Counted from the stretch's first letter, positions 6,229-45,619 are shown. The stretch: DNA of 64,000 nt from a virus (IMGVR_UViG_3300017991_000003:1-64000), one strand, 5' to 3'. Notes: generated by a model from the letters alone, not told the origin. Numbers and translations: made by a program.

Positions 6229-6268
6229 CCTATCCTTCTAACTGACGGCCAACAGGGCACTTAGCACG

Positions 6269-8194: not shown

Positions 8195-8812
8195 GTGAAC
8201 CAGGGTGAGGCTCTCTTCCGATCCAAGGGCATCTGGCCCGGGGTCTACCAAGCGGTCCTGAACAAGAAGTTCGGGCCCGCCTGGCTTACGTGGGAGCCCG
8301 AGACCCTCTGGGCAGAGATCAAGCGCGTCTGGAAGGCTGAGCCGAGCGGCGAGATCCAGTCCAAGATCCTCGCTACCCGGATCGCGATGACTACCGACTT
8401 GTTCTACACGGACGCCCCGGCGTTCGAGAACATGATCCTGGCGGTCAACGATGTCGAGTATGACCCCGAGCTCCTCCAGCTGGCTACCCCGGAAGAGATC
8501 GTTTACGGTGTGCGCATGCTGTCGCCTTTGCGTGACGGCTCCTTCAACCGAGAAGTGACGGGCTACATCCGAGCCTGCTGCCGTCGGGCCGGCCTCCTGC
8601 GCTATCCCGACGACCTGCGCTTTGCTGAGCCGCAGTACCCAGACAACCTGGCGCGCATCGTCTCTCAGATCACCACTAAAGAAGCTGGCGACGACCTCGA
8701 CCCGCACGATACCGTAGCGGTGCAGTCCAACAATCTGTACCGGATCCAGGTGTACGTGAACGAGAAGCTGGCCCAGATGAGCACTGACGCTCTGACCCCC
8801 TCCACAGAATGA
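8195..8812 (+). CDS. hypothetical protein
   Basis: 205 aa ORF starting with GTG at 8195; stop overlaps next start. Confidence 0.55.
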   Translation: MNQGEALFRSKGIWPGVYQAVLNKKFGPAWLTWEPETLWAEIKRVWKAEPSGEIQSKILATRIAMTTDLFYTDAPAFENMILAVNDVEYDPELLQLATPEEIVYGVRMLSPLRDGSFNREVTGYIRACCRRAGLLRYPDDLRFAEPQYPDNLARIVSQITTKEAGDDLDPHDTVAVQSNNLYRIQVYVNEKLAQMSTDALTPSTE

Positions 8813-9339
8813 CCGAGACATGGAAAGAGGTCCCGGGCTACCCCGGGTACGAGGTCTCTGATCAGGGGCGGGTACGATCGTGGCGATCCAAACGCTACCC
8901 CGGGAAGCGTCGCAAGAAGCCGTGGGTTCTGCGCCCGTGGACGAACTCGGAGGGGTACCTCCGCGTCAGCCTTTGTAAGGACGGGAAGCGGGATACGCGG
9001 CTTGTGCATCGCGTAGTGCTCTCGGCGTTTGATCCTGACCCGCCCGCAGAGCGGTTCCAGGGAGAGCATCTAGACGGGAGCAAGGACAACAACAAGCTAG
9101 CTAACCTCCGTTGGTCGACTCCAAAGGAGAACAACGCTCGGAAGCATGAGCACGGTACTCAGCCGAAGCGCGGTGAGGAGTCACACCAAGCCCGTCTAAC
9201 CGAGGATCAGGTTCGAGAGATCCGTCGGCTGAAGGCGGAGGAGGGGTGGTCGTTCACCAAGCTGGGCAAGCACTTCGGTGTCAGCGATGTGGCTTGCTCC
9301 AAGATCGTTCGCCGTAAGACCTGGAGTCACGTCAAATGA
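8809..9339 (+). CDS. free-standing HNH homing endonuclease (NUMOD4-like N-terminus)
   Basis: N-terminal W-x-x-VPGYPGYEVSDQGRVRS motif; HNH core EHLDGSKDNNKLANLRWSTPKENN (about 9064..9129). Confidence 0.7.
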   Translation: MTETWKEVPGYPGYEVSDQGRVRSWRSKRYPGKRRKKPWVLRPWTNSEGYLRVSLCKDGKRDTRLVHRVVLSAFDPDPPAERFQGEHLDGSKDNNKLANLRWSTPKENNARKHEHGTQPKRGEESHQARLTEDQVREIRRLKAEEGWSFTKLGKHFGVSDVACSKIVRRKTWSHVK

Positions 9340-11231: not shown

Positions 11232-11611
11232 TGGGCGCCAAGGGCAGTGGGCGTACACGCATCGAAGCGGACCTGATGCCTCGGGTCCGTGAGGGCTTTG
11301 CACGTCGTCTCCAAGACATGGGGACGATGAGCAAGCTCGGCGCCATCCTGCTCAAGCCCAACCAAGGGACACAGCGCCGCATCCGGCGTGAGACCCTCAA
11401 TATGGACACGGTCGGTGATCAGAAGCGTTGGCAGATGCTGCACAACGACTCCGAGCGCTATGAGGTCATCACGGCCAAGGACAGCAACACCAACCGCGGT
11501 AACTACTGCCACGTGACCTACATCGAGAAGGGTGACGACCTCCCCCTCGTCAAGAGCGAGAGCGAGCTCCGTTCTGAGGATAAAGAGCGCATCAAAGAGG
11601 AGGGCGGCTGA
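11231..11611 (+). CDS. hypothetical protein
   Basis: 126 aa ORF; ATGA-type overlaps at both ends. Confidence 0.5.
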   Translation: MGAKGSGRTRIEADLMPRVREGFARRLQDMGTMSKLGAILLKPNQGTQRRIRRETLNMDTVGDQKRWQMLHNDSERYEVITAKDSNTNRGNYCHVTYIEKGDDLPLVKSESELRSEDKERIKEEGG

Positions 11612-14600
11612 TGCTCGAAGGGCAGCACTTCCGGCAGTTCAAAGAGGCGCTGACTCGGTCGGAGGGCATCGTCAAGGGTATGTTCCCGATCGAGAGCCCC
11701 ACGAAGCGGCTCGAGGTCACGAACCTGCGTTGGACGAACGTAGGCCCGGACGTGGTCTTCGACGTCGAGAAGCAGAAGCAGGCCAAGCTGAAGGAGCAGT
11801 CGATCAACGCTGTTCTGGTCGGTGACGTCACGCTGCGTGAGCTCGGCTCCAAAGGGAAAGTCCTCGACCAGACCAAGCGCTACCCGATCCTCTCGGTGCC
11901 GCACCTGACGATGAACGCTGGCTACATCGTCAACGGCAAAGAGCAGCAGGTCGTCAACCAGTTCCGTCTGCGCCCTGGCATCTACACCCGGTTCACGGGG
12001 GACGACAACGTCGAGGCGTTCCTCAACACCACGGCGATCGGTACTTACAAGATCCTCCTCGACCGCTCTACCGGTGTGATCCGTATGCGGGTCGGCACGG
12101 CCGCACGCACCCCGATCTACTCGGTTCTGATCGCGGCTGGGCTGACTGATGCCGAGATCAAGACACTGCTGGGGACGGAGCTCTACGCGGAGAACAAGCG
12201 GGCGGCCAAGCCGGATCAGGACATCCCCAAGCTCCTGAAGCGGATGCGCCCGTACCTCAACCAGCCGGCGGAGCTGGGCGAGAAGTCAAAGCTCGTGCGT
12301 CAGTATCTGGAGTCGAAGCCCCTCGACCCCGCCGTGAACAAGGTCACGGTGGGCGAGGGTCTCGACCGCATCGACCGCAATGCCCTCGTGGCGGCGATCA
12401 AGAAGGTCCTCAAGCTGTCTAAGGGTGAGGCAGAGCCCGACGACACGGAGAGCCTTGCCTTCAAGTACATCCTCTCGATCGAGGACTTCGTGCCCGAGCG
12501 GCTCCAGAAGGCGGCCGACGGGCTCAAGTACAAGATCCAGGGCGACATGCGCCGCCGGGATGAGATCCGCTTGATCCTCCCGCCCAACCGCCTGAGCCAG
12601 CCGGTGGAGTCCTTTTTCACCACCTCGGAGTTCACGCGCTACTCGAGCCAGCACAACCCGCTGGACATGGCGGCGATCTCGAGCCTGACCACCACCATGG
12701 GTGATGGCGGGATCTCGAGCTCCCATGCGATCACCGACGAGGTGCGTACGATCCACCCGAGCCACTACGGTCTCCTGGATCCCATGCACACCCCGGAGGG
12801 GTGTTGCAGCGCTGACATGGAGGTCATGACGGATCAAGGCTGGGTTGCGTGGCCCGACGTAGACCGGACCACTCGGTTTGCTTGCCTAGACGCTGATCAA
12901 GGCCTTACCTATCACCGCGCCTCCGAGCTACACGTCTACGACCACGACGGGCCTCTCTACGGGTTCAAGTCGGAGACCCTGGAATACCTGCTGACCCCGA
13001 ATCATCGTCAGTGGGTCCGCCCGATTGAGGATCGATCGACGCGTGGGTATCGGTTTGAGACCGCGGAGGAGATGTACGGTAAACGTCGGCGAGTCCGCAT
13101 CGGCGGGCATTTGGCCTACGAGGGTCAGGCCGTCGATACCTGGCAGCTCCCTGAAATCCCTAAGGGAAGCAACTCGCAGAAGGTTTTCCCGGCCTTTGCT
13201 ATTGAGGACTGGGCTGAGTTCCTTGGCTGGTACCTGAGCGAAGGGAGCAGTCGGGGTTACGTGACTTCGATCACGCAGTATGAGGCTGCGAACCCGGAGA
13301 ATGTGGCTCAGATCGAGGCGCTGTTGACACGCATGCAGGTCGCGTGGAGCCGCAGCTCCAGGAGCTTCTCGATCCCAGGTAAGCAGCTAGTCAGCTACCT
13401 GCGTCAGTTCGGCCACTCCGATACCAAGTACATCCCTAAAGAGGCGTTCGACTTCCCGGCGGCGGCGCGTGAGGCCATGCTCGAGGCGCTAATGCTCGGA
13501 GACGGTCGCAAGGGCAAGGGCCGATGCTCTTGCTACTGCACTACATCTGAGCAGCTCGCCAAGGACGTGCAGCGCTTGGCCTTCGGCCTAGGGGTGTCGA
13601 GCAAAATCACCTTTGAGCCGGATACGCGGGAGGAGCACTACCGCGGGTGCTGGATCGTCCATCTCCACGCGCTCACTGAGCGTCAGGTGCTGCCACAAAT
13701 GCGCGCAGCAGGTAACGGCCAGTTCATCGAGGAATACCAAGGCAAGGTCTACTGCGCCACGGTTCCTGGTGGCCTGCTGTACATCCGTCGAGCCGGCAAG
13801 AGCGGTTTCTGGTCCGGCAATAGCAAGGTGGGCGTGACCGGTCACTTGGCCCTGGGCGCGCGCAAGAAGGGGCAGACCCTCTACGTCCCGGTCTATGACG
13901 CCAAGACGGGCAAGCGCGTGGAGAAGTCGGTTCAAGACCTGGACCAGGCCACCATCGCGTTCCCTGATCAGTACGACAACCTGCCCGACAAGCCGGGCGC
14001 GTCGGTCAAGGGCAAGCCCACGACCAAGCTGAAGAAGGTCAAGGCCCGTAGTCGTAACGAGTTCACGGAGGTGAGTCCGTCGGCTGTGGACTACATCTTC
14101 GTCAGCTCCGACAGCTTCTTCAGCTCGACCACGGCTGCGATTCCCTTCCTCCCCAACAACGACGCCAACCGCGTCCTGATGGGTGACAAGCATATCGAGC
14201 AGTCGGTGAACCTTGAGGACCCCGACGCGCCGATGGTCCAGCACCGCATCCGAGGCCGGGGCTATGAGGAGATGTTCGGGGAGCGCCTAGCCCCCCGGGC
14301 TATCGACCCCAAGACCGGCAAGCCCGTCGGCGGAGAGGTCCTCGAGGTCACCAAGACGCATATCACCATCCGGCCGGATGGCGGCGGCCGTCGACGCATC
14401 AAGGTCCCGATCCACGACCACTACCCGCTCAACAGCCGGACGTTCCTGCACGACGAGCCGGTGGTGAAGAAGGGTGACAAGGTCAAGCCTGGCCAGATCC
14501 TGGCCCGCAACAACTTCACCAAGGACGGAGACCTGGCGGTCGGCAAGAACCTCCGAGTCGCCTACACCGCGTACAAGGGCTACAACTTCGAGGACGGCAT

Positions 14601-17600
14601 CGTCATCTCGGAAGGGGCGGCTAAGAAGTTGACCTCGGTGCACAAGTACGAGGCCCGCGTTGAGAAGGGCAAGGGCATCACGGTCGGTGCAGACGCCTAC
14701 GCTGCCGCCTACCCCTCGGAGCTGGAGCATATCCGCGACCGTGCCCGGCGCTACGACGCTGTGGGTGTTATCAAGAAGGGCCAGCAGGTCGTCAAGGGCG
14801 ATGTCCTGATCCCCGCCATCCAGGAGGTCGAGGCGCATCCCGAGTACGACTACAAGCGTCTGCACCGCAGCGCCGGTCTCCGGCACATGGATATCAGCGA
14901 GACCTGGAACCACGACTTCCCTGGTGAGGTCGTAGACGTGGTCAAGACTCGGACATTCGTGAAGGTCGTGGTCAAGAGCAAGGAACCGATGCAGGTCGGT
15001 GACAAGCTGAGCTCGCGCCACGGCGCCAAGGGCATCGTCGTCAAGATCATCCCTGATGAGGAGATGTACAAGGACGAGGAAGGTGCGACGATCGATATCC
15101 TGCTCAACCCGGCGGGGGTGCCTGGTCGCGTCAACACGGGTCAGATGCTCGAAGCCGCGGCCGGCAAGCTGGCCCGTAAGACGGGCAAGAAGTACTACAC
15201 CGACAACTTCAACGAGAAGGGCAGCACGATCAAGAACCTCCGCAAGGAACTAGCGGGGGCCGGGATCTCCGATGAGGAGACGATCGTCGACCCGAAGACG
15301 GGGCACAAGCTCGAACGCGTCCTCGTCGGCGACACGCACATCTACAAACTGACCCACCAGGTCACGGGCAAGATGAAGGCCCGCGCCTCTGTGGGTGAGC
15401 CCTACTCGGTGGACGAGCAGCCCGTGAAGGGATCAGGGTCAGGTGCCCAGCGCATCGGCATCCTCGACACCTTCAGCCTGCTTTCGGGCGACGCCACGGC
15501 GTTCCTCGAGGATGCCTTCGGCCTCAAGAGCCAGAAGAACGACGAGTACTGGCGTGCCCTCCAGACTGGGCAAACACTGCCGCCTCCGAAGACCCCGTTC
15601 ATCGAGGAGAAGTTCGTGGCCATGCTCATTGGCGCGGGCATCGACCTCAAACAGAAAGGCAGTCGCATCGACGCGGGGCCGCTGACGGATGCTGAGGTTC
15701 TCTCAATGTCCAATGGCGCCATCGAGCGCCCGGTGGCGGTCAAGGCATCGAACCTCAAACCCGAGCGTGGCGGGCTCTTCGATCCCGGCAAGACCGGCGG
15801 TCCTGGCGGCAACTACTGGAACCATATCGATCTAGCCTCTGAGGTCGTGCACCCGCTGATGACCGACGCTGCGGCGTCCGTGGGCGGGTTCAAGACCAAG
15901 AAGGAGATGGACCAGATCATCCAGGGCCTGCTCGCGGTCACCGAGGAGGGCGAGGTCGTGGAGGCAGGCACCGCGGGTGCCGTGGCCGGTGGCTCGGGAG
16001 TGAAGCGCCGACTCGCTACGATCAACGTTCCGAGGGCCATCAAAGAGACCGAGTTGGTGGCGGCGACCGCCAAGGGCGCCAAGCTGGACAAGGCCCACAA
16101 ACGGCTGCGCTACCTGCGCTCGCTTCAAGCCAGTGGCCACTCGGCTGTTGATGCCTACATCAACAAGACCCTCCCGGTCATCCCCGCCAAGTTCCGTCAG
16201 ATCGCTCCGATGCCCGACGGCAGCCTGAGTGTGGCTGACGCCAACCACGGCTACCGAGAGGTCCTTCTCATCAACGAGAAGATCAAGCAGCTGAAGGCTC
16301 TCGGAGTCGACGAGCAGAACCTGCGAGCACTCAACAAGGCTCTGGCGGACGCTACGGCCGGCCTCGTAGGCACGGCGCCTCCGATCAGCCGAGGCAAGGT
16401 CTTCCGCGGCTTCGTCAGTCAGATCCACGGCCCGACGCCTAAGTCGGGTCTGGCGCAGTCGAAGCTCATGGGACGCAACCAAGACCTGAGCGGCCGGTCG
16501 ACTGTGATCCCCAACCCCAAGCTGGGGATGGACGAGGTCGGTATCCCGGCTGAGATCGCCTACAAGATCTACAAGCCCTTCGTCATCAAGCGTCTCGTCA
16601 CCGCCGGCCACAAGCCGCTAGATGCCCGCTCCATGGTCGAGCAGGGCCACCCGGCCGCCCGTCGTGCGCTCGAGGTGGAGGCTGAAGACCGCCCGGTGCT
16701 GATGAACCGCGCGCCCTCACTGCACAAGTTCAACATCCAGGCCCTCAAGCCCCGGGTGATCGACGGTAAGGCGGTCGAGGTCAACCCGCTCATCGTGAGC
16801 GGCTACAACATGGACTTCGACGGGGATACGGCCGGTCTACACGTTCCGGTCTCTGAAGAGGCCCGGCGCGAGGCTCGTGAGAAGCTGCTCCCGTCGCGCA
16901 ACCTGTTCAGCCCTCGGGAGGAGTTCGTGGTCCATGCCCCGACCAAGGAGACGATCCTCGGGGTGTACCTGATGACTACGCCCAAGGGACTTGCCTCCAA
17001 GTCGTTCTCCTCCGACCAGGAGATGGTCAAGGCATACCAGGCCAAGGAGATCAAGGTCAACGAAGCGGTGAAGGTCCAAGGCGCTGTGACCTGCGCCGGT
17101 CAGGCCATCTTCAACACGGCGCTTCCTATGGATCTGCGCGTGGGTCGTACGTCGGTGACCGGTCCGCGTTTGAGCCAGCTCCTGGTTCGCATCGGTCGGC
17201 AGTTGGGCCCCGACCGGGCCGCTCAAGTGATCTCGAAGATCAAGGACCTAGGCAACCACTACGTGACCGAGGTCGGGTTCTCCGTGAGTCTCCGGGACCT
17301 TGAGCTTGATACGAGCAAGCGGGATCAGATCGTCAACAAGCTCAAACGAGACGCCAAGACCAAGGGGTTCGATGAGGCGGCTGGCGAGGCGCTCGAAGAC
17401 ATCGCAGCGCTGCTGGCGTCGGCAGAGGATAACCGGTTCGTGGAGGCTGGCATCACATCCGGAGCCCTAGGCTCCAAAGGCATCCACCGGATGCTGGCGA
17501 GCACCGTGGCAGTGACGGATCACAAGGGCAAGACGGTCCCGATCCCGGTCGAGAAGTCCTATGCCGAGGGCCACGATCTAGGTACCTACTTGGGTACGAC

Positions 17601-18765
17601 CCCCGGCGCCCGGAAGGGCTTGATCGACAAAGGCCTGAGCGTGGCGGATACGGGCTACTTCAGCCGCATGCTCGTCAACAGCTCGATCGAGAACCAGGTG
17701 ACCGTCGCGGACTGCGGAACCAAGTCGGGCCAGGATCTGCCGCTCAACTCCCAGGAGCTCGCGCACCGCTACGGCGCCGAGGGCCGCTACCGCAACGTCT
17801 TGATCACCTCGGACATCGCCCGCCGCCTGCGCTCCCTAGGCCAGAAAACGGTCAAGGTCCGTAGCCCTCTGACTTGTCAGGCGCAGAAGGGCGTCTGTCA
17901 GAAGTGCTTCGGCCTACTCGAGGATGGCAAACCGCCTCGCATCGGTTATCACGTCGGTGCTCTGGCCGGCCAGACCCTGGGTGAGGTGGCTACCCAGCTG
18001 ACCCTGCGCAGCTTCCACACTGGTGGCGCTGTTGGTGGGCCCGACCTGGGTTTTGAGCGCATCCGTCAGATCATGGAGATGCCTCAAAGCATCCAAGGCA
18101 AAGCCATCCTGAGCGAGGCCACCGGCCAGGTGACGCGCATCGACACAGCGCCGGCGGGCGGTAGTTACGTCTACGTCGGCTCCGAGAAGCACTTCATCCC
18201 CAAGGAGCTGGGGGTAGCGGTGAGTCGAGGCCAGCGCGTGAAGGCGGGGGATCAGCTGAGCAAGTCGGGTGTGATCAAGCCTCAGGAGCTGCTAGATACG
18301 ACAGGGGACATCAATCGTGTCCGTACCCATCTGATCAACGAGCTGGATGCTAACTACAGAGCGGCCGGCAAGAAGGTCAACCGCCGGATCTTCGAGACGG
18401 TGGTCAAGCCTCTTACTGACCGTGCGACTGTGACGGACGTCGGAGACGCCGGCCGCCATTTCCCGGTACATGCCGGGGAGGTCATGCCTGTCAACCAGAT
18501 CGAGGAGATGAACCGCAAGCTCAAGCAGCGCCGTCTTCGCCCGATCCAGTTCGAGCCTATGATCATGGGTATCAAGCAGGCCCCGTTCCAGAGCGAGGAC
18601 TTCGTGGGAACGCTCACCCATGAGAAGCTCAAGCGGACCCTCACCGAGGCCCCTAGCCTGGGTAAAGCCACGGACCTTGTGCGCGGCCACCCGATGGCCC
18701 GCCTGGGTCTCACCAACCTCCGATCCATCGAAGCCATCAAACGACCTCAAGGGGTGAAGCGATGA
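11611..18765 (+). CDS. fused beta-beta' multisubunit DNA-dependent RNA polymerase, intein-containing
   Basis: Beta motifs: SQHNPLD...HPSHYG...HTPEG, IPFLPNNDANRVLMG, GDKLSSRHGAKGIVV (14998..15033), VNTGQMLE, GAQRIGILDTFSLL. Beta' motifs in the same frame: NHIDLASEVVHPL, NMDFDGD (about 16807..16827), PSLHKFNIQA. Beta' N-terminal Zn-ribbon appears absent. Confidence 0.85.
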   Translation: MLEGQHFRQFKEALTRSEGIVKGMFPIESPTKRLEVTNLRWTNVGPDVVFDVEKQKQAKLKEQSINAVLVGDVTLRELGSKGKVLDQTKRYPILSVPHLTMNAGYIVNGKEQQVVNQFRLRPGIYTRFTGDDNVEAFLNTTAIGTYKILLDRSTGVIRMRVGTAARTPIYSVLIAAGLTDAEIKTLLGTELYAENKRAAKPDQDIPKLLKRMRPYLNQPAELGEKSKLVRQYLESKPLDPAVNKVTVGEGLDRIDRNALVAAIKKVLKLSKGEAEPDDTESLAFKYILSIEDFVPERLQKAADGLKYKIQGDMRRRDEIRLILPPNRLSQPVESFFTTSEFTRYSSQHNPLDMAAISSLTTTMGDGGISSSHAITDEVRTIHPSHYGLLDPMHTPEGCCSADMEVMTDQGWVAWPDVDRTTRFACLDADQGLTYHRASELHVYDHDGPLYGFKSETLEYLLTPNHRQWVRPIEDRSTRGYRFETAEEMYGKRRRVRIGGHLAYEGQAVDTWQLPEIPKGSNSQKVFPAFAIEDWAEFLGWYLSEGSSRGYVTSITQYEAANPENVAQIEALLTRMQVAWSRSSRSFSIPGKQLVSYLRQFGHSDTKYIPKEAFDFPAAAREAMLEALMLGDGRKGKGRCSCYCTTSEQLAKDVQRLAFGLGVSSKITFEPDTREEHYRGCWIVHLHALTERQVLPQMRAAGNGQFIEEYQGKVYCATVPGGLLYIRRAGKSGFWSGNSKVGVTGHLALGARKKGQTLYVPVYDAKTGKRVEKSVQDLDQATIAFPDQYDNLPDKPGASVKGKPTTKLKKVKARSRNEFTEVSPSAVDYIFVSSDSFFSSTTAAIPFLPNNDANRVLMGDKHIEQSVNLEDPDAPMVQHRIRGRGYEEMFGERLAPRAIDPKTGKPVGGEVLEVTKTHITIRPDGGGRRRIKVPIHDHYPLNSRTFLHDEPVVKKGDKVKPGQILARNNFTKDGDLAVGKNLRVAYTAYKGYNFEDGIVISEGAAKKLTSVHKYEARVEKGKGITVGADAYAAAYPSELEHIRDRARRYDAVGVIKKGQQVVKGDVLIPAIQEVEAHPEYDYKRLHRSAGLRHMDISETWNHDFPGEVVDVVKTRTFVKVVVKSKEPMQVGDKLSSRHGAKGIVVKIIPDEEMYKDEEGATIDILLNPAGVPGRVNTGQMLEAAAGKLARKTGKKYYTDNFNEKGSTIKNLRKELAGAGISDEETIVDPKTGHKLERVLVGDTHIYKLTHQVTGKMKARASVGEPYSVDEQPVKGSGSGAQRIGILDTFSLLSGDATAFLEDAFGLKSQKNDEYWRALQTGQTLPPPKTPFIEEKFVAMLIGAGIDLKQKGSRIDAGPLTDAEVLSMSNGAIERPVAVKASNLKPERGGLFDPGKTGGPGGNYWNHIDLASEVVHPLMTDAAASVGGFKTKKEMDQIIQGLLAVTEEGEVVEAGTAGAVAGGSGVKRRLATINVPRAIKETELVAATAKGAKLDKAHKRLRYLRSLQASGHSAVDAYINKTLPVIPAKFRQIAPMPDGSLSVADANHGYREVLLINEKIKQLKALGVDEQNLRALNKALADATAGLVGTAPPISRGKVFRGFVSQIHGPTPKSGLAQSKLMGRNQDLSGRSTVIPNPKLGMDEVGIPAEIAYKIYKPFVIKRLVTAGHKPLDARSMVEQGHPAARRALEVEAEDRPVLMNRAPSLHKFNIQALKPRVIDGKAVEVNPLIVSGYNMDFDGDTAGLHVPVSEEARREAREKLLPSRNLFSPREEFVVHAPTKETILGVYLMTTPKGLASKSFSSDQEMVKAYQAKEIKVNEAVKVQGAVTCAGQAIFNTALPMDLRVGRTSVTGPRLSQLLVRIGRQLGPDRAAQVISKIKDLGNHYVTEVGFSVSLRDLELDTSKRDQIVNKLKRDAKTKGFDEAAGEALEDIAALLASAEDNRFVEAGITSGALGSKGIHRMLASTVAVTDHKGKTVPIPVEKSYAEGHDLGTYLGTTPGARKGLIDKGLSVADTGYFSRMLVNSSIENQVTVADCGTKSGQDLPLNSQELAHRYGAEGRYRNVLITSDIARRLRSLGQKTVKVRSPLTCQAQKGVCQKCFGLLEDGKPPRIGYHVGALAGQTLGEVATQLTLRSFHTGGAVGGPDLGFERIRQIMEMPQSIQGKAILSEATGQVTRIDTAPAGGSYVYVGSEKHFIPKELGVAVSRGQRVKAGDQLSKSGVIKPQELLDTTGDINRVRTHLINELDANYRAAGKKVNRRIFETVVKPLTDRATVTDVGDAGRHFPVHAGEVMPVNQIEEMNRKLKQRRLRPIQFEPMIMGIKQAPFQSEDFVGTLTHEKLKRTLTEAPSLGKATDLVRGHPMARLGLTNLRSIEAIKRPQGVKR
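12802..13821 (+). mobile_element. intein with LAGLIDADG homing-endonuclease domain inserted after the conserved TPEG of the beta module
   Basis: Begins CCSADMEVMTDQG (block A-like), TPNH (block B-like), two LAGLIDADG-like helices (LGWYLSEGS, EALMLGDGRKG), ends ...FWSGN followed by Ser; flanks (HTPEG / SKVGV...IPFLPNNDANR) restore beta-subunit colinearity. Boundaries within a few codons. Confidence 0.65.
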
Positions 18766-38956: not shown

Positions 38957-41900
38957 ATGGCCCTCGAAAATCTCCGTCCCGATCTCAAGATCGAGCAGAA
39001 GTTCGTGACGGCGGCGCCGCTGGTGCCCGCGTCCTCGCTGCCCGTGGTGCTAGTCGGGCTCAACCGCGACCTTCGCTATCGGCAGCTGACCGACATTAGC
39101 GCCTGGAACGGCGGCGCCTCGGTCTCTGATGTTGACTTCCCCGGTTGGCTTGGCGGTGCCGTTGAGGACACGGACCAGACCGATACGTACCTGCGGCCTG
39201 TCGTCGAGGTCTACCACGACACCTACGGGTGGGCGGCCATCACGGACGACGTGACCTTCAAGAACATGGCGACCGCCCCGGCGATGGACATCGCCTCGGG
39301 TGTCGACGCGGTGTTCGAGGTCGCATCTGGCACGACCGGAGCCTTCGCTGTGGACACCAGCGCCCCGGCGGCTAGTGCCTTTACCGACGCCAACGCGGAC
39401 TTCATCGATGACCAGGTGGCAGCTGGGGACGTCATCAAGGTCGATGGGATCGCCACCTACGAGGTCAACTCTCTAGGCCTTGTGAGCGACACCGAGCTCG
39501 AGGTGCGCCGCATGGACAAGGGTCCCGGCACGGCGGGGGCGGCCGAAGCGGCCAAGATCTTCGTCAGCGCGGAGGACACCAACGACGTTCGCACCCTCTA
39601 CAACACCTCGACGGGGTTCACCGCTGCGGGCGGCTTCACCTCCTCGGGTGTGGCTGTGGGCGATCTGGTCCGCCTAGATCACTGGAACATCGTCAGCCAG
39701 GGCTCAGGCATCACCTTCGAGGCGGTGGGCGCGGATACCACGACTGCGAACAACGCCGGCGACACCGCGAGCGCGACCGAGCGCGTCGTGACGCTGCCGA
39801 CCGCTGACGCGCTTACGGCCTGGGACAACACCACTTACACCGGTGGTGTCTTCTTCACGGCCAACGCAGACGGCGACCTGATGCCGGCTTTCTACCTGAG
39901 CCACGCTGTGGCGGGCCCTGAGACTGTGGCCATCGCCACCGACTACGGCTCCAACCACCTGGTGGATACTGAAGACGCGGACTTCGGTGTGAAGTTCCAG
40001 TTGTTCGACTACGTCTATCGCACGGCCAGCGCCAGCACCACGGGTGCTTTCACCGCTGAGAACGCTGACGGCTATCGGACCTTCACCGACTCCTCGGTCA
40101 CGACCTTCAACGGCAGCCCGACTACTGTTCAGCTCGGCGATCACATCGCTATCAAGGACGAGGATGGGATCTACCGCCCGGTCTTCCAGGTCATCGGCTT
40201 TGGTGACGCGGGTAGCCCGGCCAGCGAGAGCCCGGATACGGACGCCACTCTGGCGGTCCAGCAGTTCGGTGACATCCTCGGCTCGGCGGTCTTTGCCTCC
40301 AACGTCGACTATGTGATCCTCGGAGCCGAGGTCGAGCAGGAGTACCTGGGCGCGACCATCTCGGCCGAGAACGCCGACGCCTACGGTGCTACGACCCGCC
40401 TGCTTGAGGCGACCGGTGAGGACTTCAACGCCGATGGCGTGACCGCTGGCGATCTGGTCTTCAGCGACTCTGGCACCCTGATGTTCATCGTGGTGCAGGT
40501 GGGTGACACCGTGAGCCCGCTGACCTACGACACCCTCGTGGTCGTGGATCACCCCAACGCCGGTACTACTCTCGGGACGACCGATACGATCGCTGAGTTC
40601 GGCTACAGCGTCCGCACCTCGGCTCGCTCTGACTTCCAAGTCAAGCGAGTGGTCGACGCGGACACGCTCGAGATCACCGCGCTCTCGACGACCCCGAACG
40701 TGATTCCGGGGACTCGCTCGATCCGCGGCGCTATCTACTTCCAGACGGCTCCCAGCATTGCGGCCAGCCCCGACGAGCTAGGTACCAACCCCGTGCTGGT
40801 GACTGCTGGCGACTCCGACAGCGCCATCAACTACACCATCGAGAAGACCCTGAGCGGGGCCTCTCTCGAGGGCGATGTCTATGTCACCTACGCGGAGATC
40901 CTGAACACGAACAGCGCTTCGCTGCTCAGCTTCAACTCCTCGACCGTCACGGACGTTCTGGGCGACGCGGTCCCGGGTAACCCGCTGGGTCTGGCTGGCG
41001 CCATCGCTGCCCAGAACACCGATGCGACCATGTACGCGATCCAGGTGACCGCGGACACCTCGGCTGCGTGGCAGACGGCTCTCGAGGTCGCCAAGACCGA
41101 CACGGTCTACAGCCTCGTGCCGCTGACCCAGAACGACACGTACCTGACGCTCTTCCAGAGCCACGTGACCACGCAGAGCCTGCCCGACAACAAGCGTGAG
41201 CGGATCCTCTGGCAGTCCAAGTGGTTCAAGACCCAAGTCGACCGCACGTCCTATGACTCCTCGGTGGACACGTCCAACGCCACGGTCAGCCGATCGGCGC
41301 TCGGTGTTCAGACCCTGACGGTCTACAAGGACGTCGTGGCCCTTGGGGTCATCATCGGTGACGAGGTCACCATGACGACCTTCAACGGCACTTCCGAGGT
41401 CTCGGTCTCCGGCCGGATCACGGACATCGACAACACGACGCCGGCCCAACCGGTCCTGACGATGGTGGCGGACGGCAACGTCCCGCTCTCGACCACGGAT
41501 CTGACGGTTCTGACCTACGACATCAAGTCGAAGAGTCTGTCTCAGACGGAGCTGGCCACGTCGGTCACGACCTACCTCACGGCCCTCAGCGAGCGCCGCG
41601 TCCGCAACATCTTCCCCAGCCGCTATCAGGTGACCTTCACCGACACGACGGGGATCTACGACTCGGGCCTCGGCGATGTCGAGGATTACGAGGTCGGTGG
41701 TGAGTACGTCGGAGCCATCATGGCAGCGCTGCGTCAGGCTCGCGGGCCGGCCCAGCCGCTGACCAAGGTTGCCGGCTCGGGTATCCAGCTCGTGATCGAC
41801 CCCTTCAGCGACTCGGTGACTCTGCAAGACCAGATCATCGATGGCGGCGGCTTCTACATCGAGCAGCCGGCTGGTGAAGGCGGTTCGGTCCAGGCGATCC

Positions 41901-42214
41901 GCGCCCTGACCACGGACGTTACGACCCTGACCTTCGCCGAAGAGTCGGTGACGAGCCAGGCTGACAACTTCGCCCGGAAGCTCCGCGGCGCTTTGAAGCC
42001 TATCCTCGGTCCCTACATCCTGGATGAGGGCTTCTACACGCTGGTCAGCACCATCGCCTCCGGCGTGGTCAACAGCGTGGTTCCCGACGAACTGAAGGAC
42101 GCCCTGCTCCTCTCGATCACCGAAGACGAGACCGCGGCCGACAGCTTCATCATGGAGTACAAGATCGACGTCTGGTTCTCCGGTGCCCGCGGCACGATCA
42201 CCATCTACATCTAG
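38957..42214 (+). CDS. large structural protein (1085 aa), possible extended tail sheath
   Basis: Long Thr/Ser/Asp/Val-rich ORF followed by a 250-aa tube-like ORF; assignment by gene order only. Confidence 0.2.
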   Translation: MALENLRPDLKIEQKFVTAAPLVPASSLPVVLVGLNRDLRYRQLTDISAWNGGASVSDVDFPGWLGGAVEDTDQTDTYLRPVVEVYHDTYGWAAITDDVTFKNMATAPAMDIASGVDAVFEVASGTTGAFAVDTSAPAASAFTDANADFIDDQVAAGDVIKVDGIATYEVNSLGLVSDTELEVRRMDKGPGTAGAAEAAKIFVSAEDTNDVRTLYNTSTGFTAAGGFTSSGVAVGDLVRLDHWNIVSQGSGITFEAVGADTTTANNAGDTASATERVVTLPTADALTAWDNTTYTGGVFFTANADGDLMPAFYLSHAVAGPETVAIATDYGSNHLVDTEDADFGVKFQLFDYVYRTASASTTGAFTAENADGYRTFTDSSVTTFNGSPTTVQLGDHIAIKDEDGIYRPVFQVIGFGDAGSPASESPDTDATLAVQQFGDILGSAVFASNVDYVILGAEVEQEYLGATISAENADAYGATTRLLEATGEDFNADGVTAGDLVFSDSGTLMFIVVQVGDTVSPLTYDTLVVVDHPNAGTTLGTTDTIAEFGYSVRTSARSDFQVKRVVDADTLEITALSTTPNVIPGTRSIRGAIYFQTAPSIAASPDELGTNPVLVTAGDSDSAINYTIEKTLSGASLEGDVYVTYAEILNTNSASLLSFNSSTVTDVLGDAVPGNPLGLAGAIAAQNTDATMYAIQVTADTSAAWQTALEVAKTDTVYSLVPLTQNDTYLTLFQSHVTTQSLPDNKRERILWQSKWFKTQVDRTSYDSSVDTSNATVSRSALGVQTLTVYKDVVALGVIIGDEVTMTTFNGTSEVSVSGRITDIDNTTPAQPVLTMVADGNVPLSTTDLTVLTYDIKSKSLSQTELATSVTTYLTALSERRVRNIFPSRYQVTFTDTTGIYDSGLGDVEDYEVGGEYVGAIMAALRQARGPAQPLTKVAGSGIQLVIDPFSDSVTLQDQIIDGGGFYIEQPAGEGGSVQAIRALTTDVTTLTFAEESVTSQADNFARKLRGALKPILGPYILDEGFYTLVSTIASGVVNSVVPDELKDALLLSITEDETAADSFIMEYKIDVWFSGARGTITIYI

Positions 42215-42232: not shown

Positions 42233-42985
42233 ATGAGTAGCTACGTCAACTGGAGCTGGGCCTCCGAGCACGTTCAAACCGAGATCACTAACGGCGAGTA
42301 CGTCAGCTCGGAGAGCACCCTCGTGCTCGCCGGCCCGTCCCGGCTGTCGATGCTCTCGGGTGATGCTTCCGGCAACCTCTCCACCACGAACTCGGTCATC
42401 CCCTTGGGTCTGATCCAGAACATCGGCATCACGCAGCAGCGCCAGCTGAGCCGCCTGTTCGAGATCGGCTCCAAGCGCGCGTACTTCGTGCCCGGCCGCC
42501 TGTTCTCGAACTTCACCATCGGCCGGATCCTGTTCTACGGTCCCAGCCTCCTGCGCTTGCTCTACGCGCTGGCGCCGCTGAACGACTCGCAGCTGGGTAC
42601 GGTGGGTACGGACCTGAACGTCGACCCGGACAGTCAGGGCGATCCGATCTCGATCCCCACGGACTACGCGGATCTCTTCCAGAGCGGGCAGCTTCAACTG
42701 AAGCCGGGCTACGGTGGTACGATCGGCGAGGCCCAGAACCGGGACTTCTTCATCAACCTAGCCAGTGAGCTCTTCAACGTGCCCTTCGGCATGATCCTGG
42801 TGTTCAAGGACACCCGGAACCGCCCGTATGGCGCGGCCTTCCTCGAGGACTGCTACATCGAGACCCACCAGATGGGTGTCGACGCCAACGCCGTGGTGAT
42901 CGGTGAGTCGGCGACGGGTCAGTTCGACAGTGTGGCCCCGATCCAGCTGGCTACCCAGAGCTCGATCTACGGGCCGACCCCGTGA
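42233..42985 (+). CDS. hypothetical structural protein (250 aa), possible tail tube
   Basis: Position after the large protein; beta-rich composition; no motif-level support. Confidence 0.2.
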   Translation: MSSYVNWSWASEHVQTEITNGEYVSSESTLVLAGPSRLSMLSGDASGNLSTTNSVIPLGLIQNIGITQQRQLSRLFEIGSKRAYFVPGRLFSNFTIGRILFYGPSLLRLLYALAPLNDSQLGTVGTDLNVDPDSQGDPISIPTDYADLFQSGQLQLKPGYGGTIGEAQNRDFFINLASELFNVPFGMILVFKDTRNRPYGAAFLEDCYIETHQMGVDANAVVIGESATGQFDSVAPIQLATQSSIYGPTP

Positions 42986-42991
42986 GCTGAG

Positions 42992-43108
42992 ATGAACCTA
43001 ACAGCGGCGCTGATGCTCGGTGCCCTAGTGCTGGGGGTGGCTATCGTTCTCTTGGACGATCGCCGCTCCCAGCGGCGTAAACGGGCCAAAAGGAATAGGC
43101 GGAGCTAA
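42992..43108 (+). CDS. small membrane peptide (38 aa; hydrophobic helix + Arg/Lys tail)
   Basis: ATG 42992, TAA 43106; MNLTAALMLGALVLGVAIVLLDDRRSQRRKRAKRNRRS; below the ORF-track length cutoff. Confidence 0.3.
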   Translation: MNLTAALMLGALVLGVAIVLLDDRRSQRRKRAKRNRRS

Positions 43109-43142
43109 AAAGAAGGAGAAGGGGGCTGCCGCTCCCTTCTCC
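43105..43142 (-). terminator. rho-independent terminator for the - strand block
   Basis: Perfect 9-bp stem GGAGAAGGG/CCCTTCTCC (43115..43123 / 43134..43142), extendable to about 12 bp; on the - strand it is followed by TTCTTTTT (complement of 43105..43114). Confidence 0.6.
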
Positions 43143-43174
43143 GTGCTCACCGAGGGCTTCTCGATAAGGGGCCG

Positions 43175-43516
43175 CTAGTCCCGGAGCAGTGCGACGCTCG
43201 CGAGGGCGTCGCGATGCCTGACCAGCTCACCGGTCGTAGGGAACCGCGTGATGCCGAGGAGTTTCAGGGCTTCCGTTGCGCTGTCCGCAATGGCCCAGAA
43301 CTGCTTACCATACGGGTCCGTGTACTGGTACAGGTTCACCACGGTCTCAGCGCGCTCGAACTCGTCCCAGGCATCTACACTCCCGATCCACTTGAGCGTG
43401 GACCAGTCGAGCTCGAAGGCAACATCCCGGTTCAGGAATTGATAGGGCCCTTGGGCCGCATCGGCCAGATTGAGGGCCACAACCAGATGCTGGTCTAGTT
43501 GATAGATCTGCATCAT
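43175..43516 (-). CDS. hypothetical protein (113 aa)
   Basis: First (distal) gene of the - strand block; ATGA overlap with upstream gene. Confidence 0.5.
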   Translation of the reverse strand: MMQIYQLDQHLVVALNLADAAQGPYQFLNRDVAFELDWSTLKWIGSVDAWDEFERAETVVNLYQYTDPYGKQFWAIADSATEALKLLGITRFPTTGELVRHRDALASVALLRD

Positions 43517-43908
43517 AGGTGGATCCTCCGCTTCGGCTCCTCAGCCTGCTTACCCCGCGCCTCTCGGCAGGAGGTGCACAGGGCGACCTCGCCGGCCCAG
43601 GAGCCGGCGTCGTCGATCCACTGATCGATGATCTGACAGCCGCAGATCAGCGTCAGTGGCTCCGGCTTAGACTCGAAGAGCGGCTCCTCCTCGTCCTCCT
43701 TCGGAGGTGCGAAGAAGTTGCGGGGCCTGAAGGTGCCGCACACCTGCCCAGAGAGCAGGATGTGGTGCAGCAGCTCGTAGGAGCCGAGCCCTCGCCGGGA
43801 TCCACACGCGTCGCAGAAGTGAGCACGGGCCGGGTAGTGGTCCGGATCCATCTTCAACATCTGCTTGAGATACGCGAGATCGTCGGCCCTGCTGTCAGTC
43901 CGCGTCAT
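43513..43908 (-). CDS. hypothetical Cys-rich protein (131 aa)
   Basis: CDACGS...CGCQ...CTSC putative metal-binding residues. Confidence 0.5.
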   Translation of the reverse strand: MTRTDSRADDLAYLKQMLKMDPDHYPARAHFCDACGSRRGLGSYELLHHILLSGQVCGTFRPRNFFAPPKEDEEEPLFESKPEPLTLICGCQIIDQWIDDAGSWAGEVALCTSCREARGKQAEEPKRRIHL

Positions 43909-44132
43909 TGCGCCCTCCTGGGCCAGTGCTGGCGGCAGAGCCGCTCAGCGTAGGCCTCAAGGGCCGCGGCCCGGTTGGCCTCGGCCGTGGCGATGCCCTC
44001 GGCCAGCTCCTCGCTGAGACCCTTGGCGGTCTCGACGTCGAGCTGGTCCTGCCGGGCCAGGAACGCCGTCACCGAGGTGACGTGTTCCTGAACGGAGGGG
44101 TGCTGGACCACACCGAGGCGTGGCACCCTCAC
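43905..44132 (-). CDS. hypothetical small protein
   Basis: GTG at 44132..44130 overlapping the upstream stop (GTGA); the longer track ORF to 44312 overlaps the membrane-protein gene. Confidence 0.3.
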   Translation of the reverse strand: MRVPRLGVVQHPSVQEHVTSVTAFLARQDQLDVETAKGLSEELAEGIATAEANRAAALEAYAERLCRQHWPRRAQ

Positions 44133-44554
44133 CGGGTCACCTCGTCGATGTAGTCCTTGATGGGCTTGTCCATCTCGATGGCGGCCTTCATGGCCGCCCA
44201 GATTTTGTCCGCATCCGCAAGCCGAAGGACCACACAGGTCCCGTAGATCGCGATGACGCTGAGCATCAGCGCGGCGGAGCCGACCACGGCGCTCGTAGTC
44301 CACCACATCCACGTGGGAAGCGGCAGGATCGTCAGGTCGTACACGCCGGCGACGACCACGATCGTGTAGACCGCGACCAGGGTCGCCACGATGGCGTACG
44401 CGGAGCGGTTGAGGTCCTTGAGGACCCCGGCGTGCATCAGCACGATGCTGATCACGCAGGTCGCCGACACGACCAGACCCGTGTTGGGGCCCAGTCCGAA
44501 GAAGGCGACGACGGCCCAGAACAGGCCGTACAGGGTGTTGAAGGTGCGCGACAT
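44129..44554 (-). CDS. small integral membrane protein
   Basis: Four hydrophobic segments; ATG at 44554..44552 preceded by GGAGG (track start 44620 also possible). Confidence 0.55.
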   Translation of the reverse strand: MSRTFNTLYGLFWAVVAFFGLGPNTGLVVSATCVISIVLMHAGVLKDLNRSAYAIVATLVAVYTIVVVAGVYDLTILPLPTWMWWTTSAVVGSAALMLSVIAIYGTCVVLRLADADKIWAAMKAAIEMDKPIKDYIDEVTR

Positions 44555-44703
44555 GGTCGGCCTCCAGTGTTGGGGTGATGATGGTGCCGGGGTAGACATT
44601 CCCCGGATCACTAAACTCATGCCCGAACCCTCGCTTGTTCTGGCGCTTTTGGGTACCTACACTTCTTGTCGATGATGAGTCGGCGCCTCTGCGGGGCGGC
44701 TTC

Positions 44704-44736
44704 TTTCATGGGCAGGGCCTCGACGCAGCGGCAGCG
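44704..44736 (+). terminator. long GC hairpin followed by ATTTT on + strand; orientation and function unresolved
   Basis: AGGGCCTCGACGC-AGCGGCA-GCGTCGGGGCCCT, about 13 bp with one G-U; sits between sigma-factor stop and membrane-protein start. Confidence 0.35.
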
Positions 44737-44753
44737 TCGGGGCCCTATTTTGT

Positions 44754-44775
44754 GGCACTGGCTCCCAGTGTCAGA
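44754..44775. promoter_or_regulatory. 22-nt conserved element TGGCACTGGCTCCCAGTGTCAG (copy 2), palindromic core ACTGG-N3-CCAGT
   Basis: Exact duplicate of 26116..26137; overlaps sigma-factor stop codon. Confidence 0.4.
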
Positions 44776-45619
44776 GATTGGGATCGATGTCCTCGAGCAG
44801 CACCCACAGCTCTCGAAGCCCCTCGTTCTCGATCTGCCTCACACGCTCCCGAGTCCGCCGGTAGAAGCGTGCGAGCTCCCCATAGGGGGTCGGGTTCTCG
44901 TGCCCGAACCCGTAGTGCCGGCGGATGATGTCCTCAGCCTCCGGCTTCAGCTGCGCCAGGGCCCAGTTCAAGAGGTCCCGGTTCTCCTGATTGATGACCC
45001 GATCGAGCATCGCCGGGGCCGGTCCTAGCTGAACCCCCTGCGCTGTGTCCTGGGTGAGCCGGCCGCACGCCTCGGTGATCTCGGTGTCCAGGGTCACCAA
45101 CCGACTATCCCGAGCGTGCCTGTACTTCCGGATCTTGTCCGGGTCCCAGCCGAGCTCCTCGAAGATCTCCTCCTCGTCCGGGTAGTAGCCGTTGGTCTTC
45201 AACATCCGGTACGCCTTGGTCTGGTAGTCGGTGACCAGGGACCGGTGGCGAATAGGCTTGGCTGAGAGGTTGCGGTACTCCCGACGGACCTCGGCGTCGA
45301 TCCACCAGACGGCGTAGGTACTGAACTTGACGTGGCTCTTCGTGCCCTTGACGACCCGGTCAAGGTCGAAATCCCTGAGCGCCTTCATAAGCCCCACGAA
45401 CCCCGCGGAGATCATGTCGTGATAGCGCGCGTCCTTGGCCTCGACGAAGCGCTGCACTCGTCGGATTACCAGGCGGACATTGTGTTCGACCAGCCGCTGA
45501 GCTGCGGCATCATCCCCCTCGCGTAGCGCTTTGACGAGCAGCTCGCGTTCTTCCTCCTTCGACAGGACTGGGTGATCAGCTGCCTTGTGTAGGGCGATCT
45601 CGTCGAAGGACCAGTCCAC
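44771..45619 (-). CDS. sigma-70-family RNA polymerase sigma factor
   Basis: Region 2: LVEHNVRLVIRRVQRF...GFVGLMKALRDFD...KFSTYAVWWI; region 4 helix-turn-helix: NPTPYGELARFYRRTRERVRQIENEGLREL. Confidence 0.75.
   Translation of the reverse strand: MDWSFDEIALHKAADHPVLSKEEERELLVKALREGDDAAAQRLVEHNVRLVIRRVQRFVEAKDARYHDMISAGFVGLMKALRDFDLDRVVKGTKSHVKFSTYAVWWIDAEVRREYRNLSAKPIRHRSLVTDYQTKAYRMLKTNGYYPDEEEIFEELGWDPDKIRKYRHARDSRLVTLDTEITEACGRLTQDTAQGVQLGPAPAMLDRVINQENRDLLNWALAQLKPEAEDIIRRHYGFGHENPTPYGELARFYRRTRERVRQIENEGLRELWVLLEDIDPNL

Follow-up and report, generated by a model that had tools for sequence, protein, structure and literature searches.

A selected 38-codon gene for a predicted single-pass membrane micro-protein in a lineage-specific island of an uncultured phage

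Introduction

What is the function of a very short open reading frame (ORF) that encodes a hydrophobic helix with a highly basic tail and stands at the end of the structural genes of a large phage? We addressed this question for a 38-codon ORF at 42992..43108 on the + strand of IMGVR_UViG_3300017991_000003:1-64000, a 64,000-nucleotide stretch of DNA from an uncultured phage that we refer to as the window. The window has a G+C content of 63%, with + strand genes from ~119 to 43108 and - strand genes from 43175, and its sequence is also found on the IMG/VR contig UViG_3300018080_003942 and on contigs of 175-193 kb. An earlier interpretation made from the window alone (the sequence-only reading) had likened the ORF product to small holin- or antiholin-like or membrane-anchored peptides. 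We find that the ORF is a gene, and we consider it somewhat more probable than the contrary that its product acts as an accessory membrane micro-protein rather than as a core holin.

Results

The ORF encodes a hydrophobic helix followed by a polybasic tail

The ORF begins with ATG, ends with TAA and encodes the peptide MNLTAALMLGALVLGVAIVLLDDRRSQRRKRAKRNRRS, so that the coordinates, start, stop and length of 38 amino acids all agree with the initial description. Its parts are as follows.

42992..43108, + strand: micro-protein gene, 38 codons (the interval includes the stop), with orthologs in the L032-type and L035-type lineages and under purifying selection
42998..43054, + strand: predicted transmembrane (TM) helix LTAALMLGALVLGVAIVLL, codons 3-21, 19 residues, delimited by hydropathy and by invariant columns
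43055..43105, + strand: aspartate pair (DD) and polybasic tail, codons 22-38, with 10 lysine or arginine residues (K/R), predicted to be cytoplasmic by the positive-inside rule

A hydrophobic helix preceding a highly basic tail had been proposed, and both elements are evident in the window peptide. The best 19-residue Kyte-Doolittle mean is 2.70, over residues 3-21, and the 17-residue tail DDRRSQRRKRAKRNRRS contains 10 K/R and 2 D. The peptide has neither the positive N-terminal n-region of a Sec signal nor a cysteine, and we conclude from these two features that it is neither a signal peptide nor a lipoprotein. At fewer than 60 residues, and hydrophobic, it falls within the size range of type I toxins.

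An open frame of this length is ordinary in G+C-rich DNA, but its architecture stands out. Of the 487 six-frame ORFs in the window with 25-80 amino acids, the peptide ORF alone has a 17-mer hydropathy of at least 2.5. When the 64 kb were randomised 20 times with a first-order Markov model, such hydrophobic ORFs appeared at a mean of 0.1, and none had a basic tail. We conclude that the architecture of the peptide is not a product of chance.

The ORF is a protein-coding gene under selection

We fetched ~125 loci around metagenomic homologs of the tail-tube-fold protein that is encoded immediately upstream of the peptide (described below). The two nearest lineages, L032-type and L035-type, each have an ortholog of the peptide in the corresponding location, and its start codon aligns with that of the window ORF.

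Window lineage: ATG start, peptide MNLTAALMLGALVLGVAIVLLDDRRSQRRKRAKRNRRS
L032-type (tube protein 90% identical to that of the window): ATG start, peptide MLTFILVVGAVVLGIVIIFIDDAQTRKRRRHFHK
L035-type (tube protein 81% identical to that of the window): GTG start, peptide MSLTLGLVIGAAVLGIVIVLVDDARAPRRRRRRRR

The orthologs are 34, 35 and 38 amino acids long, and each variant is identical to the nucleotide in 3-4 independent assemblies. The 19-residue hydropathy is 2.70-3.20 across all three, so each has at least one transmembrane domain (TMD), and each has a basic, hydrophilic C-terminal end with 6-10 K/R in the final 14-17 residues; both features are shared with holins. Just one or two residues precede the hydrophobic segment, and the net charge of the tail is +4 to +8. 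Eleven positions, L3, T4, L7, G10, A11, V13, L14, G15, I18, D22 and D23, are invariant, as are two arginines of the tail, and A11-x3-G15 forms a small-xxx-small motif inside the TM helix.

These features are retained despite extensive nucleotide divergence. The DNA of the peptide gene is 49-62% identical among the three lineages, and the differences by codon position in the three pairs were 14/11/22, 16/11/25 and 10/9/20, with the third position changing most. The proportion of synonymous differences (pS) was 0.63-0.74 and that of nonsynonymous differences (pN) was 0.28-0.42 (Fisher p 2e-4, 4e-3 and 3e-3). In the tube gene pS was 0.51-0.65 and pN 0.09-0.15. Because pS in the peptide gene is of the same order as in the tube gene, we conclude that the two genes were inherited together vertically and that the peptide gene is as old as the split of the three lineages. 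The peptide itself has evolved at 2-4 times the rate of the tube protein. BLOSUM62 scores of the sense frame were 93, 72 and 89, compared with at most 58 in other frames, and none of 20,000 simulations with an equal number of random substitutions reached the observed scores.

A frame not conserved in related genomes had been named beforehand as what would refute the sequence-only reading. Both of the nearest lineages retain the frame, start, TM segment, DD and basic tail, even though synonymous sites are nearly saturated, and this check favours the ORF. Taken together, we conclude that the ORF is a genuine protein-coding micro-gene under selection. The kept TM segment and basic tail also lend good support to the suggestion that the product is membrane-anchored.

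The peptide founds a small new family

The ORF had been called unannotated, and public gene calls on the identical contigs are indeed empty across the interval. An exact look-up of the three peptides among 15 billion proteins found none of them, and phmmer with the peptide against 1.84 billion representative proteins gave 0 matches. Likewise, 50,697 phage records gave no megablast match to the 7.2 kb surrounding the ORF, and patterns derived from the three-peptide alignment recovered the window's own contig or nothing in IMG/VR, JGI metagenome contigs and GTDB genomes. Rfam has no family in the region.

Scans against Pfam and PHROGs gave nothing useful for the peptide, and no holin model appeared even at E values up to 10. 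Below threshold, the three orthologs matched three different and unrelated Pfam models, which indicates that the matches reflect composition. PF21314, the TM-juxtamembrane model of EGFR, was the only profile to score the window peptide (E 1.2e-4, 22 bits, with a gathering cutoff of 27), and the two orthologs did not match it. The match recognises the layout of a TM helix followed by a basic juxtamembrane stretch, and is a compositional analogy only. We conclude that the peptide founds a small new family without homologs, of a known general kind, the phage-encoded single-pass membrane peptides.

The gene belongs to a lineage-specific island at a variable junction

The region between the tube gene and a sigma-factor gene contains the peptide gene and, on the opposite strand, the following genes.

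43175..43516, - strand: 113-amino-acid protein without a hydrophobic segment, found only in the window lineage, no Pfam or PHROG match
43513..43908, - strand: 131-amino-acid, Cys-rich protein with CxxC pairs, found only in the window lineage, no family match
43905..44132, - strand: 75-amino-acid protein with weak homologs in the L035-type (67 amino acids) and L032-type (78 amino acids) lineages
44129..44554, - strand: 141-amino-acid multi-pass membrane protein with 3-4 hydrophobic segments, no Pfam or PHROG match
44771..45619, - strand: sigma-70-family factor (phrog_351, E 6e-40), at the far edge of the island

The sigma gene follows the tube gene in 52 loci by tblastn, convergently in nearly all, and the gap between the two is mostly ~25-130 nt in relatives as compared with ~1.8 kb in the window. 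The junction is a variable hot-spot. In the clade of the window the island measures 1.8-2.3 kb (42986..44770 in the window and 4754..7040 in L035), other relatives (L129, L130, L040 and L013) carry unrelated inserts at the same junction, and L128-L130 also belong to the hot-spot set.

The content of the island also differs between the peptide-bearing lineages. The 75-amino-acid protein showed 38% identity over 61 amino acids by BLASTP. A set of 5.8 billion clustered proteins contains a single homolog of the 141-amino-acid protein, 61% identical and encoded by the L035-type phage, which is the only other peptide-bearing lineage with the island fully on a contig; the 141-amino-acid protein is a possible partner of the peptide. 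The L035-type island additionally encodes an unrelated 121-amino-acid membrane protein with four segments and a 137-amino-acid protein whose hydrophobic N-terminus ends in Cys. The latter (5844..6257, - strand) is absent from the window; it starts with MKNILCLSLIILGVSSC, resembling a lipoprotein signal with a lipobox-like VSSC, and may be an outer-membrane or periplasmic lipoprotein. In the L032-type island a 91-amino-acid membrane protein, likewise unrelated, adjoins the peptide.

We found the peptide in three of ~60 related lineages. It is absent from more than 55 distinct relatives, which is unlike the conservation expected of a holin. A hidden Markov model built from the three peptides and run against all short ORFs of 124 fetched loci returned the three known variants only, and none of the 55 other distinct relatives has a convincing comparable TM ORF after its tube gene. 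L039, a 76% relative, lacks the peptide ORF but has retained both the spacer and the - strand terminator (see below). At 4775..4835 of L039, reading by eye, there is an inverted repeat, GACCGGAGCCG...CGGCTCCGGTC, followed by TTTTCG; it resembles a + strand terminator standing back-to-back with the conserved - strand terminator. In the 70% relative L040, a 122-amino-acid ORF (4807..5175, + strand) follows the tube gene and has a C-terminus, GGALGLAWYLFRRRVAIPGIKTG, that consists of a short hydrophobic stretch and then RRR; the ORF is analogous to the peptide in position, and no sequence relationship between the two is detectable.

We conclude that the peptide gene belongs to a lineage-specific, membrane-protein-rich island at a variable junction and is not a core gene. 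Its place in the island and its restricted distribution together point to an accessory, moron-like function.

The gene lies between a tail-tube-fold gene and a convergent terminator

Two features flank the peptide ORF.

42233..42985, + strand: gene for a tail-tube-fold protein of 250 amino acids, in the same frame as the peptide, with a TGA stop
43106..43142, - strand: intrinsic terminator of the convergent operon, with a 12-bp G+C-rich hairpin at 43115..43142 and a U-tract that is the complement of 43106..43114

The AlphaFold2 (AF2) model of the tube protein has a pLDDT of 76, and Foldseek matched it to PVC, AFP, phage 812, diffocin and other tube proteins with E values of 1e-6 to 1e-4, those for PVC, AFP and phage 812 being 1e-6 to 1e-5. 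It has at least 155 metagenomic homologs, and its distant tblastn match is gp237 of Salmonella phage Arash, annotated as 'structural protein'; proteins of that phage were re-annotated as structural from virion mass spectrometry (Arash paper). The description of the peptide as the end of the structural block is thus accurate, with the peptide as the last + strand ORF, 6 nt after the stop of the tail-tube-fold gene. Upstream, a 1085-amino-acid protein without a Pfam or PHROG match (38957..42214, + strand) adjoins the tube-fold gene, where a tail sheath would be expected. Searching GTDB genomes for a clue to the host returned one Verrucomicrobia metagenome-assembled genome contig with a tube protein 35% identical, which is uninformative.

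The distance from the tube stop to the peptide start is 6 nt in the window, 12 nt in the L035-type and 25 nt in the L032-type. The start context of the peptide, GCTGAG-ATG, is similar to the CTGAAC-ATG found before several clear phage genes and before the L032-type peptide. Many genes of the phage have no Shine-Dalgarno sequence, and several have a CTGAAC-like (CTGA[AG]) motif right before the ATG. These motifs, found upstream of the starts at 24211, 31801, 36716, 42233 and 42992 and at 4765..4781 in L032, often stand just 3' of the preceding stop, and may be a phage-specific context for coupling or re-initiation.

At the other end of the ORF, the A-tract TAAAAAGAA (43106..43114) includes the TAA stop of the peptide, and on the - strand the terminator reads as the hairpin and then CUUCUUUUUA. 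A consensus terminator scanner missed this hairpin because of an internal mismatch in the stem; it was identified by folding instead, with -26.7 kcal/mol for the - strand (z -2.6) and -29.2 for the + strand. The same arrangement is present in L032, L035 and L039.

The peptide is best read as an accessory inner-membrane micro-protein

We hold it somewhat more probable than otherwise that the peptide is a late-made, single-pass inner-membrane micro-protein with its N-terminus out and its C-terminus in, and that it has an accessory role rather than that of a core holin. The gene would be the last to be transcribed in the late tail operon, right after the tube gene. Translation would probably occur by re-initiation or by coupling with the tube gene, since only 6-25 nt separate the tube stop from the peptide start and a good Shine-Dalgarno sequence is lacking. 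The product would be a single-pass inner-membrane peptide of 34-38 residues. With one or two residues ahead of the helix and a basic tail behind it, the positive-inside rule predicts that the N-terminus is outside and the C-terminus cytoplasmic, so that the polybasic tail may lie on the anionic inner leaflet. The invariant helix face (L7, G10, A11, V13, L14, G15 and I18, including A-x3-G) could mediate helix-helix packing, through which the peptide would self-associate or dock onto a membrane protein, possibly one of the island's own. In this way it may, late in infection, alter some property of the host-cell membrane, and candidate effects are modulation of a membrane protein, exclusion, and fine-tuning of membrane energisation or of lysis timing. 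Position and distribution suggest that the peptide is produced late alongside the tail proteins and that the phage group can dispense with it, which leads us to read it as an accessory membrane micro-protein.

Several observations weigh against this reading. No convincing Shine-Dalgarno sequence precedes the peptide start. With only three lineages, the selection statistics derive from three mutually dependent pairwise comparisons. Each of these lineages also has an open antisense frame, though a less conserved one. The putative packing motif is short and, by composition, common in helices rich in Gly, Ala, Leu and Val, which tempers the suggestion of docking or oligomerisation. Finally, the argument against a holin relies partly on negative profile searches in a genome most of whose proteins match nothing.

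Layout, but not family, size or conservation, resembles a holin

The foremost alternative is that the peptide is a lysis-timing protein, either a minimal holin or pinholin that would depolarise or permeabilise the membrane at a critical concentration, or an antiholin that would delay the real holin. We consider this unlikely. The resemblance to a holin or antiholin that was first suggested stands as far as the layout is concerned, and falls short in family match, size, linkage to a lysin and conservation.

Natural holins have ~60-220 amino acids, and the peptide, with 34-38, is about half their size. The holin families in Pfam and PHROGs gave no match. Every one of the ~60 related lineages must lyse its host, yet only three carry the peptide. 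No muralytic domain was recognisable among ~55 window ORFs, so there is no sign of an endolysin cassette. Pfam and PHROGs scans of the same ~55 ORFs bear out the statement that the window has no recognised lysis genes, but since most of these ORFs match nothing at all, this absence is weak evidence.

In favour of a lysis role, the gene is in a late operon, and one or more TMDs with a positively charged C-terminus is the generic description of holins and pinholins (PMC9025707), a description that the single TMD and basic end of the peptide fit. Holin genes can also be unlinked from the lysin gene, as P1 lydA/lydB are (PMC9025707), and no lysis genes of this phage group have been identified to date. 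Arash offers no guidance here, as the 16 kb of its annotation that we examined contain only a 1165-amino-acid virion cell-wall hydrolase, and the paper names neither a holin nor an endolysin.

The closest parallel is the pinholin S21. Its second TMD (TMD2) is necessary and sufficient for pore formation, and a fragment of residues 30-68 forms transient pores (bioRxiv 10.1101/2021.04.20.440580). At 39 amino acids, comprising TMD2 and the tail, that fragment has the same size and layout as the peptide. Comparing LGALVLG...DDRRSQRRKRAK of the peptide with LGSLVLG...REDRRKAAR of S21, 12 of 29 positions are identical, with the S21 sequence checked only against the fragments quoted in that paper. The BLASTP E value of 0.003 refers to this one pair, whose TM sequence is of low complexity; it does not demonstrate homology, and against a database the similarity has no statistical meaning. 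The helix of the peptide also lacks the polar residues of S21 TMD2 (Ser, Thr, Asn and Tyr), with T4 alone. A pinholin has two TMDs, of which the first is a SAR-like (signal-anchor-release) helix able to exit the membrane, and the peptide has a single hydrophobic segment with one or two residues ahead of it. G10, A11 and G15, invariant in the orthologs, form an A-x3-G motif that may correspond to the glycine zipper or small-xxx-small motif of a pore-forming pinholin helix; the first zipper Gly of S21 is Leu here, and motifs of this kind are common in Gly/Ala-rich helices. No partner signal-anchor-release (SAR) endolysin is recognisable within the 64-kb window.

A narrower form of this idea, which we regard as distinctly improbable, is that the peptide is a natural one-helix depolariser of the pinholin or holin-like type, 34-38 residues long, that serves as an add-on trigger or timer of lysis, perhaps together with the 141-amino-acid protein of the island.

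Membrane toxin, non-coding and readthrough alternatives

A second alternative, to which we attach little probability, is a small membrane toxin or target inhibitor, which would be either a depolariser of the type I toxin kind or an amurin-like TM blocker of an essential membrane enzyme. There is precedent for the latter in phiX174 E, which blocks MraY, and likewise in the Sgl proteins of single-stranded (ss) RNA phages. phiX174 E, many Sgl proteins and type I toxin peptides have an N-terminal TM helix and a basic C-terminal part, and the size and layout of the peptide resemble theirs. The search for Sgl proteins took in ORFs that had one TMD and were no shorter than 25 codons; such proteins originate de novo and diverge rapidly (PMC7693330), and the peptide likewise diverges rapidly (pN 0.28-0.42). 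Against this, TMD architecture alone predicts little, since 178 of 293 TMD-bearing Sgl candidates had no effect when expressed (PMC7693330). The peptide belongs to a myovirus-like, double-stranded (ds) DNA phage of ~190 kb rather than to one of the minimal ssRNA or ssDNA phages that have an Sgl or amurin gene as their sole lysis gene; among the products of the window are a terminase, the tail-tube-fold protein, a fused RNA polymerase and helicases. An antisense RNA arrangement as for type I toxins is not apparent, as a sigma-70 consensus scan, the only promoter scan made, found no promoter-like site in or near the ORF on either strand, and the - strand terminator ends convergent transcripts at the stop codon of the peptide ORF.

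It is highly improbable that the ORF is not a gene, being either a chance ORF in the spacer between tube gene and terminator or the shadow of a real antisense gene of 40 codons (42967..43089, - strand). By base composition, an open frame of ~36 codons has roughly a 1 in 3 chance at 63% G+C. The lack of a clear Shine-Dalgarno sequence, and L039 with its spacer and terminator but no ORF, would also fit chance; the open antisense frame, which the JGI caller chose in L032, would fit the antisense gene. However, conservation scores for the antisense frame were 53, 18 and 58 against 93, 72 and 89 for the sense frame, the synonymous excess is significant, and hydropathy and basic tail are kept despite ~50% nucleotide divergence in an architecture unique among the 487 short ORFs. 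We rejected the antisense ORF as a weaker mirror of sense conservation, with a featureless product, that lies beyond the terminator of the - strand operon.

Barely credible is a C-terminal extension of the tube protein by stop readthrough, giving a minor membrane-anchored tube variant, for although the peptide is in frame with the tube gene in the window (TGA plus 2 codons) and in the L035-type (TAG plus 4 codons), it is in the +1 frame in the L032-type with a second in-frame stop after the tube gene, chance alone would put two of three in frame in ~1/4 of cases, every ortholog retains an ATG or GTG of its own at the aligned start, and no relative's tube protein has such a tail; we rejected this fusion because the frame relation is not conserved. 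An RNA element was dismissed, given no Rfam match and a substitution pattern that is that of coding sequence.

Comparison with known membrane peptides

We compared the peptide with known systems of similar size or layout. Like TMD2 and tail of pinholin S21 68 of phage 21, it is predicted to be a late-made, single N-out/C-in helix. LGSLVLG of S21 TMD2 corresponds to LGALVLG of the peptide, both have an acidic pair or an acidic-basic mix followed by a basic cytoplasmic tail, and the lengths are 39 and 38 residues. S21 differs in having two TMDs, of which TMD1 controls timing, and a linked SAR endolysin, whereas the peptide has one TMD and no SAR endolysin was seen in the window.

Canonical holins (classes I-III) share with the peptide a small size, late production, at least one TMD and a positive C-terminus. 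They usually adjoin the endolysin gene, and a holin would be needed for lysis by every member of the phage group. The peptide differs from them in having 34-38 amino acids, in lying 3' of a tail-tube gene and in being absent from most relatives.

Among bacterial micro-proteins and type I toxins, AcrZ, MgrB, KdpF, TisB, Ldr and Fst have 20-50 residues and one helix, with charged ends that set topology. Such proteins either bind larger membrane proteins or depolarise the membrane. The peptide resembles them in size and layout, but it is phage-encoded and has no sequence relationship to them (0 phmmer matches).

The coat proteins Pf3 and M13 g8p of filamentous phages are, before assembly, short N-out/C-in helices with a basic cytoplasmic C-terminal tail, and these tails bind ssDNA in the filamentous virion. 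Unlike Pf3 and M13, the phage studied here encodes structural proteins of a tailed phage, and there is no indication that the peptide forms part of the virion. The TM-juxtamembrane region of EGFR/ErbB1 (PF21314) likewise combines a TM helix containing small-xxx-small with a polybasic stretch after it.

phiX174 E and the Sgl proteins are, like the peptide, tiny, fast-evolving, lineage-specific proteins with one TMD that are missed by annotation (PMC7693330). They come from minimal ssDNA and ssRNA phages and are embedded in other genes, whereas the peptide gene occupies an intergenic island in a dsDNA phage of ~190 kb.

Other features of the window

Three further observations concern the remainder of the window. 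A 2384-amino-acid ORF at 11611..18765 on the + strand contains Pfam domains of RNA polymerase beta (Rpb2 3 and 6) and beta' (Rpb1 1, 2, 3 and 5), and we conclude from the presence of both sets in one ORF that it is a fused beta-beta' gene of a multisubunit-type RNA polymerase. In Arash, beta and beta' are separate proteins and are found in the virion (Arash paper). An HNH homing-endonuclease-like gene (NUMOD4 and HNH_3) lies within the + strand block at 8809..9339 (+ strand). Finally, a 446-amino-acid ORF without a family match (29679..31019, - strand) lies inside the otherwise + strand block, and is either a real gene or a shadow ORF.

Discussion

The existence of this gene illustrates that gene callers miss selected micro-genes in phage genomes, either because the interval is skipped or because the wrong strand is called, and the patterns of pS and pN across just three diverged relatives sufficed to rescue it. 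The new peptide family sits in a membrane-protein-island hot-spot of an uncultured phage group that is distantly related to Arash. If the peptide did act as a one-helix pinholin, it would be the smallest natural holin-type protein and equivalent to the engineered TMD2-only fragment of S21. Should it have no effect on membrane energisation or lysis timing, it would be an ordinary accessory micro-protein. If it does affect either of them, it would be a minimal natural helix of the pinholin type, and one that is easy to study as a synthetic peptide.

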